64,000 nt of DNA from an uncultured bacterium (GCA_963713925.1 OY970212.1:1212274-1276273); one strand, 5' to 3'. Counted from the stretch's first letter, positions 19,660 through 19,849 are shown. Notes: generated by a model not told the origin, from the letters alone. Translations and numbers: made by a program.

Positions 19660-19849
19660 GTTCGTATGGATTCGACTTCGTTGCACTCCGCTCACCACGA
19701 ACGGAAAAAGAACTGCTACACTTATGAATGAATCATGCTGCCTTGAATAAAATTATTCCTCCCCGTTCGTGGTGAGCGAAACGAGTCCCCGATCGTAGCG
19801 TAAGCGTAGATTGGGGTTAAAACGTAGTGGAGTCGAATCCATACGAACG
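19660..19849. mobile_element. family-1 MITE-like inverted pair
   Basis: Left arm GTTCGTATGGATTCGAC..CTCACCACGAACGG. Right arm CCGTTCGTGGTGAGCG..GAGTCGAATCCATACGAAC. They are inverted and flank about 50 nt of unique AT-rich sequence. Confidence 0.75.

Follow-up and report, generated by a model that had tools for sequence, protein, structure and literature searches.

How a short hairpin came to be repeated, mostly in inverted pairs, across a small bacterial genome, and which enzyme multiplied it, is the question raised by positions 19660–19849 of the 64,000-nt stretch of DNA analyzed here (the window). The window comprises bases 1,212,274–1,276,273 of a genome that is represented by one contig (1,318,721 bp or 1.32 Mb; 40.8% GC). 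A placement of the host among the Dependentiae (TM6) fits the many small-genome relatives as well as the type II secretion genes of the window. A preliminary description of the window had treated the repeats as one MITE-like, non-autonomous family of hairpin modules.

Anatomy and Genomic Distribution of the F1 Repeats

Two modules define the repeat. Module A, GTTCGWATGGTTCGAC, occurs in the 1.32-Mb genome in 47 exact copies and in 77 copies at up to two mismatches, and module B, CTCACCACGAACGG, in 47 and 98 copies, respectively. These counts lie far above the chance expectation of about 0.001 for a 16-mer. Both modules belong to one repeat family, named F1, in which an A module, a variable loop and a B module follow each other in the local form GTTCGWATGG-TTCGAC..loop..CTCA-CCACGAAC. 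Complete A..B units number 84 genome-wide, 11 of them inside the window, and comprise 5 minimal units (32–33 nt), 53 units of 41–44 nt and 26 units of 71–125 nt, the last group being enlarged by other small hairpins that lie within the loop. The repeats form a genome-wide family that is not restricted to the window, its units being non-autonomous as proposed earlier, and the modules, single arms and fragments (12376–12805) first noticed there were all recovered. The idea of a single module family held for A and B; the module GGGCCCCATGCG..GCATGGGTAAAA belongs to a separate second hairpin family, F2, with 94 copies.

Most F1 units are paired: 63 of the 84 belong to 32 pairs of neighbors, every one of them inverted and none direct. 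The units lie head-to-head (B inside) in 19 pairs and tail-to-tail (A inside) in 13, and the inverted pairs initially reported at 19660–19849, 40621–40852, 59255–59427 and 62458–62609 are real. Both arms have the same A/T variant in 16 of the 19 head-to-head pairs (p 0.004). When folded as single-stranded DNA, the focal pair 19660–19849 is predicted to form one long hairpin, arm-on-arm (dG −51.7 kcal/mol, z −9.5). Single units fold weakly and no better than shuffled sequences (z +1.1 to −1.6), and the unit at 40776–40850, with an F2 hairpin nested in its loop, reaches a z of −2.5. No target-site duplications were found around the 19 head-to-head and 13 tail-to-tail pairs. The F1 copies of this genome are old, with a divergence of 12–25%.

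The units are richer in GC than non-repeat spacer DNA (52% vs. 37%), in line with the preliminary description. Its statement that most long spacers hold such modules was too broad, as repeated DNA is present in only 13 of the 33 window spacers of at least 150 nt. Across the genome, all repeated modules combined account for about 26 kb or 9% of spacer bases, and F1 units are found in about 52 spacers. Convergent spacers are enriched and divergent ones depleted among these (16 convergent, 5 divergent and 31 other spacers observed, vs. about 8.5, 10.5 and 33 expected; p ~0.007). Both orientations are equally frequent, and units also occur in ORFs and inside other repeats. The orientation of F1 shows no replication-strand bias (30 vs. 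29), a test which is uninformative because most units lie in inverted pairs. No match to the modules was obtained in Rfam at gathering or E-value thresholds, a literature search with the DNA strings and the encoded peptides yielded nothing relevant, and the F1 sequence is absent from the REP/HUH papers searched for it, PMC3733652 among them.

The F1-related features of the window are listed below (window coordinates, strand, feature).

7808–7839, plus: minimal F1 unit of 32 nt, followed by an F2 hairpin (7851–7868) and the tail CGGAGAGCAGATTTTTT
12376–12805, unstranded: composite of F2-type hairpins (12422–12447, 12651–12679, 12706–12731) and an orphan A module (12788–12802)
15420–15461, minus: F1 unit with an adjoining F2 hairpin (15392–15409)
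19660–19702, plus: F1 unit (A..B), left arm of the focal head-to-head pair, with the variant GGATTCGAC, mirrored in the right arm
19765–19848, minus: F1 unit, right arm of the focal pair; its loop holds a nested F2-type hairpin at ~19785–19822, GTCCCCGATCGTAGCGTAAGCGTAGATTGGGGTTAAAA
40670–40711, minus: F1 unit, left arm of a tail-to-tail pair
40712–40775, plus: 64-nt centre, internal-deletion relic of a GIY-YIG gene by alignment to the intact units at genome 141563–141980 and 353922–354306
40776–40850, plus: F1 unit, right arm, with an F2 hairpin (40807–40825) nested in the loop
59255–59296, plus: F1 unit, left arm of a head-to-head pair
59395–59427, minus: minimal F1 unit of 33 nt, right arm of that head-to-head pair and also left arm of a tail-to-tail pair with 59477–59518
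59477–59518, plus: F1 unit
62412–62435, plus: terminal motif TAGGTTCCGTTGAGTTTTTGAAA, pointing at the adjoining F1 unit; second copy at 59542–59565, minus
62460–62501, minus: F1 unit, arm of a tail-to-tail pair
62502–62565, minus: 64-nt GIY-YIG relic with the same deletion, in reverse orientation to the 40.7-kb copy
62566–62607, plus: F1 unit, second arm of the tail-to-tail pair

The 24-nt motif TAGGTTCCGTTGAGTTTTTGAAA has 25 copies genome-wide, vs. 3 for a reversed control, and 20 of these copies point toward an F1 unit that is no more than 155 nt away.

Directly after an F1 arm, GGAGATTGTTTTATG (window 40852–40870) supplies the ribosome-binding site and likely start of a GspH-like pseudopilin, so that the repeat adjoins a translation start. 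The UvrC-like ORF at window 18396–19640 (414 aa) matches in its best stretch only the first ~250 of the 574 positions of the UvrC model; a second matching stretch was not located, and the ORF may be truncated just ahead of the focal repeat pair. A metagenome scan for filled and empty strain-level sites with the uvrC-end flank gave nothing, and the contigs with F1 variants do not stem from close relatives. The window holds no tRNA genes.

A GIY-YIG Nuclease Gene Within Tail-to-Tail Pairs

Outside the window, two tail-to-tail pairs (genome 141563–141980 and 353922–354306) enclose centres of 301 nt, each of which consists of an intact 94-codon ORF (genes at genome 141,650–141,931 and 353,976–354,257). 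The 94-aa protein is a single-domain GIY-YIG nuclease (Pfam PF01541, E 6.5e-17, residues 4–75), and the nearest proteins of solved structure belong to UPF0213 (PDB 1zg2 and 1ywl); no NCBIfam model matches it. The positions of the GIY-YIG motif (Y, Y, R, H, E) are conserved at 60–90% or more across the clade. The two gene copies differ at 19% of residues with a dS of 0.39, and their dN/dS (omega) of 0.25 therefore places both under purifying selection.

The 40.7-kb and 62.5-kb copies in the window are 82% complementary over 135 nt, which confirms the reverse-orientation homology of their centres noted before. Together with two further 64-nt centres at genome 356.6 kb and 1113.3 kb, the centres at 40712–40775 and 62502–62565 align to both ends of the gene and are therefore relics of it; what is left at 40712–40775 is the 5′ leader together with the start-codon region, joined to the final codons and the 3′ trailer. 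All four copies have identical deletion breakpoints relative to the gene-carrying parent, which bears out the earlier suggestion of a mobilized unit; the deletions in two further copies, at 1204.5 kb and 316.0 kb, are different ones. Since the 40.7-kb and 62.5-kb centres represent the same internal deletion of the GIY-YIG gene, they are copied deletion derivatives, and a single derivative was copied to at least four loci. The centres of the head-to-head pairs are heterogeneous and unrelated to each other, and a gene-bearing parent of these pairs was not found.

Each GIY-YIG paralogue in the genome is flanked by a hairpin type of its own. GIY-3 (genome 104371–104613) is of the canonical type known from Ssn nucleases, described below, with the flanks GTCATCCTGAAC..GTTCAGGATC, and GIY-4 (genome 1102918–1102667) is a divergent 80-aa ORF between a tRNA gene and CCAGGCTTCGC..GCTACGCCTGG modules. 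The latter module is also present 3′ of several tRNA genes (loci 434335, 476190, 476559, and 582046).

Linkage of Hairpin and Nuclease in Other Genomes

Exact matches to the minimal hairpin GGTTCGAC-N2-8-CTCACCACGAACGG occur in at least 120 contigs, and those listed among the matches include Methylococcales, Dehalococcoidia, Burkholderiales, Nitrospirales, Moraxella, Legionella, Fibrobacteres, Tectomicrobia, Binatia, Sulfuricurvum, and others. The cross-phylum consensus consists of a 10-bp stem (CCGTTC/GAACGG on the outer side and 4 variable bp on the inner side) and the loop TTCGAC-RRG-CTCA, and F1 is the version of this many-phyla hairpin in the Dependentiae genome. In other phyla, the hairpin often lies beside an oppositely oriented sister hairpin and has nested inserts in its loop. 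Of the 20 hairpin-matched genomes, 19 contain 15–501 copies each of the 13-nt loop and the twentieth contains two, with 0–3 occurrences of the reversed control. The hairpin sequence also occurs in viral contigs; close homologues of the nuclease were not found there with single-protein patterns. At one locus of a Nitrospirales MAG (L031, 855–1066), five F1-type hairpins are arranged in tandem with a 46–47-nt period, from which it follows that arrays of one arm can expand.

Homologues of the GIY-YIG protein are present in 9 of the 20 hairpin-matched genomes (43–52% identity) and in 12 of 40 Dependentiae relatives (45–61% identity), the latter having been selected independently of hairpins. Flanks were read at 24 loci, the own locus included, with homologues of 43–61% identity from the 12 Dependentiae relatives and from 9 other genomes, which include Proteobacteria, a Nitrospirales MAG and an Anaeromyxobacter MAG. 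F1-type hairpins lie within ~100–200 nt on both sides of the gene at 19 of these loci, on one side at 4 (in one case the contig ends at the gene) and on neither side at 1. The orientation is common to 18 of the 19 two-sided loci, with CCGTTCG..TGAGC..TCGAA upstream and TTCGA..GCTCA..CGAACGG downstream, and two metagenome contigs repeat the hairpin-gene-hairpin pattern. Some more distant GIY-YIG homologues are accompanied by other hairpins (CGTCATTCCCGCGAACGCGGGAA, GTCATTCCGAACGCAGTGAGGAATC, GTCATCCTGAAC..GTTCAGGATC), and the UPF0213-like ones have none.

In a maximum-likelihood tree, the F1-flanked proteins fall into one clade (24 of 26 rows flanked; support 82/77), and proteins with NTS-like or other non-F1 hairpins form a separate one (14 rows; support 99/97). 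Proteins of the F1 clade share on average 53% identity with one another, 31% with the NTS-like clade and 35% with UPF0213-like proteins, which places the F1-linked clade slightly nearer to UPF0213. Among the 40 Dependentiae relatives, the degenerate 3′ module CTCRSSRCGARCGG has more copies where the clade is present (2 × 2 table 9, 3, 8, 20; Fisher p 0.013, Mann-Whitney p 0.002). The genome-level association of hairpin and clade is imperfect: 8 of the 28 relatives that lack the clade nevertheless contain five or more hairpin modules, a gene of the F1-linked clade is missing from about half of the hairpin-rich genomes in other phyla, and an isolate labeled Moraxella lacunata (G042) contains 148 loops and no GIY-YIG match.

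Comparison With Known Systems

The closest known system is that of the Ssn nucleases and their NTS/SRM hairpins, and the F1 units are classed here with Ssn-like nuclease-hairpin systems. SsnA of Neisseria meningitidis is a 94-aa GIY-YIG protein (CDD family cd10448) which binds the NTS hairpin repeat on single-stranded DNA, cuts just upstream of it, and is inactive on double-stranded DNA and RNA (Chenal et al., 2025, Nat Commun, PMC11893778). Across many phyla, “Ssn-related motifs” (SRM) are found on the flanks of ssnA genes, and the NTS-ssnA-NTS layout has been likened to an insertion sequence (IS), with domestication hypothesized and mobility not demonstrated (PMC11893778). Both systems combine a single-domain GIY-YIG protein of ~94 aa (range ~90–100 aa) with inverted hairpins that bracket its gene and are also dispersed genome-wide in tens to hundreds of copies, both include many enzyme-hairpin pairs in many phyla with an enrichment in symbionts, and GIY-3 of the Dependentiae genome is a typical member. 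In contrast to the Ssn system, the F1-linked proteins belong to the separate clade described above (31% identity to the NTS-like-flanked clade vs. 53% within), and F1 has no GTCWY head. The SRM pattern HGTCWY..YYVSBRH..WNVSBRG..RNCYNB has 3 matches in the genome, vs. 1–3 in shuffled sequences, and none in an F1 unit. Furthermore, IS-like behavior is only hypothesized for Ssn, and the Dependentiae genome shows copied deletion derivatives; Dependentiae are not mentioned in the Ssn study (PMC11893778).

F1 also resembles REP/BIME and REPIN-RAYT elements, extragenic imperfect palindromes which mostly occur as inverted doublets (Nunvar 2010; Bertels & Rainey 2011; Ton-Hoang 2012). F1 shows such inverted doublets of a 20–45-nt imperfect palindrome (32 inverted, 0 direct), and mosaic clusters, the lack of target-site duplications and a single-copy flanked gene as presumed driver are further likenesses. 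The differences lie in the enclosed gene, which encodes a hydrolytic GIY-YIG nuclease instead of a Y1 HUH transposase in a genome without RAYT, in the missing GTAG/CGTC head, and in the cross-phylum occurrence of the F1 hairpin, as REPs are lineage-specific. Like bacterial MITEs such as Correia/NEMIS, RUP, and Nezha, F1 elements have inverted ends, measure 150–250 nt, lie between genes, and include gene-less copies that derive by internal deletion from a unit with a gene. The term MITE-like is apt insofar as gene-less deletion derivatives were copied, but the F1 pairs have no target-site duplication, the parent encodes a nuclease and not a DDE transposase, and the “ends” are independent hairpin units that also occur singly. 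Hairpin cassettes nested in repeats and in protein genes are reportedly known as Rickettsia palindromic elements (Ogata, in 2000) and as small dispersed repeats of Nostoc (Elhai, in 2008). The small F2 hairpins are similarly nested in repeats and protein genes of a reduced intracellular genome, but differ in sequence and phylum, and no linked gene was found for them.

Origin and Spread of the Units

Some F1 repeats are gene-less remnants of a unit in which inverted hairpins surround the 94-aa GIY-YIG gene, with the nuclease as the probable driver. The parent unit would be IS-like, with inverted F1 hairpins bracketing the gene. The 40.7-kb and 62.5-kb tail-to-tail pairs are gene-deleted descendants that were copied after the deletion in the fashion of MITEs, and the head-to-head pairs, including the focal pair at 19660–19849, as well as the single units would be further gene-less members. 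By analogy with Ssn and NTS, the nuclease would recognize the hairpin when it is folded in single-stranded DNA and would introduce a nick next to it, and copies would then spread via single-strand or repair-based copying; cleavage, the strand and site cut and the mode of copying are modeled on that system. Other small hairpins (F2) may have been written into the exposed loops. GIY-YIG nucleases are hydrolytic and strand joining is beyond the nuclease alone, so the copying step would need host enzymes.

The main rival holds that the hairpins spread by other means and that the GIY-YIG gene is a homing passenger: its nuclease would cut the palindrome of an inverted pair, the gene would be copied into the centre, and the repeats would be marked and not multiplied by it. 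GIY-YIG homing endonucleases are an established class, the gene is always central in an inverted pair and is missing from many hairpin-rich genomes, and the unrelated centres of the head-to-head pairs suit this reading as well. It is nevertheless unlikely, as the gene-less derivative with the 64-nt centre was itself copied to at least four loci and hairpin copy number tracks the gene clade in unselected relatives; moreover, the related SsnA cuts single-stranded DNA beside single hairpins and not double-stranded homing sites (PMC11893778). Very unlikely is a role as selected, immobile RNA or DNA signals (terminators, mRNA stabilizers or protein-binding sites). Such a role could account for the convergent enrichment and divergent depletion (p ~0.007), for T-runs after some copies and for the arm that adjoins a ribosome-binding site and start codon (40852–40870). 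Against it stand the lack of an Rfam match, the equal orientations, the units in ORFs and inside other repeats, the recurrence of the same sequence in many phyla and viral contigs, and the physical linkage to a nuclease gene, and purifying selection on insertions would produce the spacer bias anyway.

Less probable still is a classical REP/REPIN element moved by a RAYT (Y1 HUH) transposase, despite the inverted doublets of imperfect palindromes, the extragenic position with enrichment between convergent genes and the missing target-site duplications. Of Y1_Tnp (PF01797), the genome retains a single trace, a relic of 30 N-terminal residues from an IS200-type TnpA (735855–735944) without F1 flanks, for which reason the cognate enzyme is probably not a Y1 transposase, and F1 units have neither a GTAG nor a CGTC head (PMC3733652). 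Nine of the 20 hairpin-matched genomes have no Y1_Tnp match, and 8 of these 9 carry 46–501 loop copies, which argues against RAYT as a general driver. The preliminary description had pointed to an IS200/IS605 or REP-associated tyrosine transposase as the cognate enzyme; what the genome offers is this relic and, enclosed by the hairpins, the GIY-YIG gene, and the RAYT/IS200 driver was rejected as largely refuted. The least probable origin is that of derivatives or targets of the resident IS110-family IS. Its three copies and at least 12 derived MITEs share the same spacers with F1, and REP sequences are known insertion targets of IS110 and IS1111 elements (PMC1525189, PMC11208160), but the IS/MITE termini AGCTTATACGAAAAT.. 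and ..TTTTCGGATAAGCTCT are unrelated to F1, no F1 unit has AGCTTATACGAAAATTAAGC or TTTTCGGATAAGCTCT ends, and none of the three IS copies lies inside an F1 unit.

The reading of F1 as remnants of a nuclease-bearing unit provides a hairpin repeat of very many bacterial genomes, so far without a named enzyme, with a directly testable candidate in the GIY-YIG clade. It carries the Ssn discovery of 2025 into a new phylum, adding a second protein clade and hairpins of a different type, and offers first sequence evidence that hairpin-gene-hairpin units act like insertion sequences leaving copied gene-less derivatives. For annotation, F1 repeats explain a large class of spurious small ORFs. If F1 hairpins are cut on single-stranded DNA, this would be a new specificity for a family already proposed as a ssDNA tool. 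More tentatively, and with the odds somewhat against it, the F1-linked clade and its CCGTTCG..TGAGCYTGTCGAA..CGAACGG hairpins could constitute an unrecognized class of nuclease-only autonomous elements, which would lack a transposase or recombinase, move as hairpin-bounded single strands, target exposed hairpin loops and shed gene-less copies. Such a class would explain why the repeat, the source of the recurrent spurious “VRQAHHER / FDKLRANG / PFVLSLSK” peptides, reaches tens to hundreds of copies in at least 10 phyla.

F2 Hairpins, IS110-Derived MITEs, and Other Repeats

F2 hairpins have the form TTTTA-CCC-stem-loop-stem-GGG-RCCC, in which the stems vary between copies and pairing is kept. 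They are nested in F1 loops (e.g., 40807–40825) and also adjoin F1 ends, and 13 copies (TTTTACCC..GGGRCCC) lie within long ORFs, e.g., at window 28529–28555 (gpmI) and 44984–45010 (a PLD-like ORF). A gene bracketed by inverted F2 copies was not found, the sole candidate ORF being ribosomal protein S18. Within F1 loops, the flanks of F2 co-vary (GTTGCA..GCAAC, GTTTCAC..GAAAC), which could reflect either an inverted duplication of the target flank or an insertion into a pre-existing mini-hairpin. Small hairpins nested in loops are also seen in other repeats and in other phyla.

The IS110-family IS (~1.3–1.4 kb; PF01548 and PF02371) is present in three copies of 99% identity and encodes a 313-aa protein with DEDD_Tnp_IS110 and Transposase_20 domains. 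At least 12 MITEs of ~150 nt are internal deletions of this IS with both ends kept. Their positions are as follows.

Window 63889–64000 (genome 1276151–1277551): IS110-family IS
Genome 678401–679672: IS110-family IS
Genome 1121058–1122451: IS110-family IS
Window 19944–20089 and 41431–41575: IS110-derived MITEs
Genome 341064, 560974, 645541, and 730871: further examples of IS110-derived MITEs

The earlier remark that the window has no transposase is barely true, as it ends within one of these IS copies and contains two of the derived MITEs, which lie directly upstream of clpB and of a 901-aa ORF. Two of the three IS copies have a 53-nt hairpin module inserted near the right end, which is missing from the third copy and the MITEs, a clean filled-vs.-empty site. 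The hairpin type GTCATCCTGAAC..GTTCAGGATC that flanks GIY-3 also occurs inside the right end of the IS and its MITEs. Hairpin-like sequence is likewise seen upstream of the TnpA relic at 735855–735944.

Finally, a repeat of ~400 nt has at least 10 copies (genome 121810, 299086, 301685, 374647, 401218, 660100, 687559, 865691, 977712, and 1002528). It contains GTCCCCTGCGCGGGGAC and CTTAAGACC..GGTCTTAAG hairpins, with other modules inserted at the hairpin tips, as well as a CTGATGAG..GAAAC stretch reminiscent of a hammerhead core.
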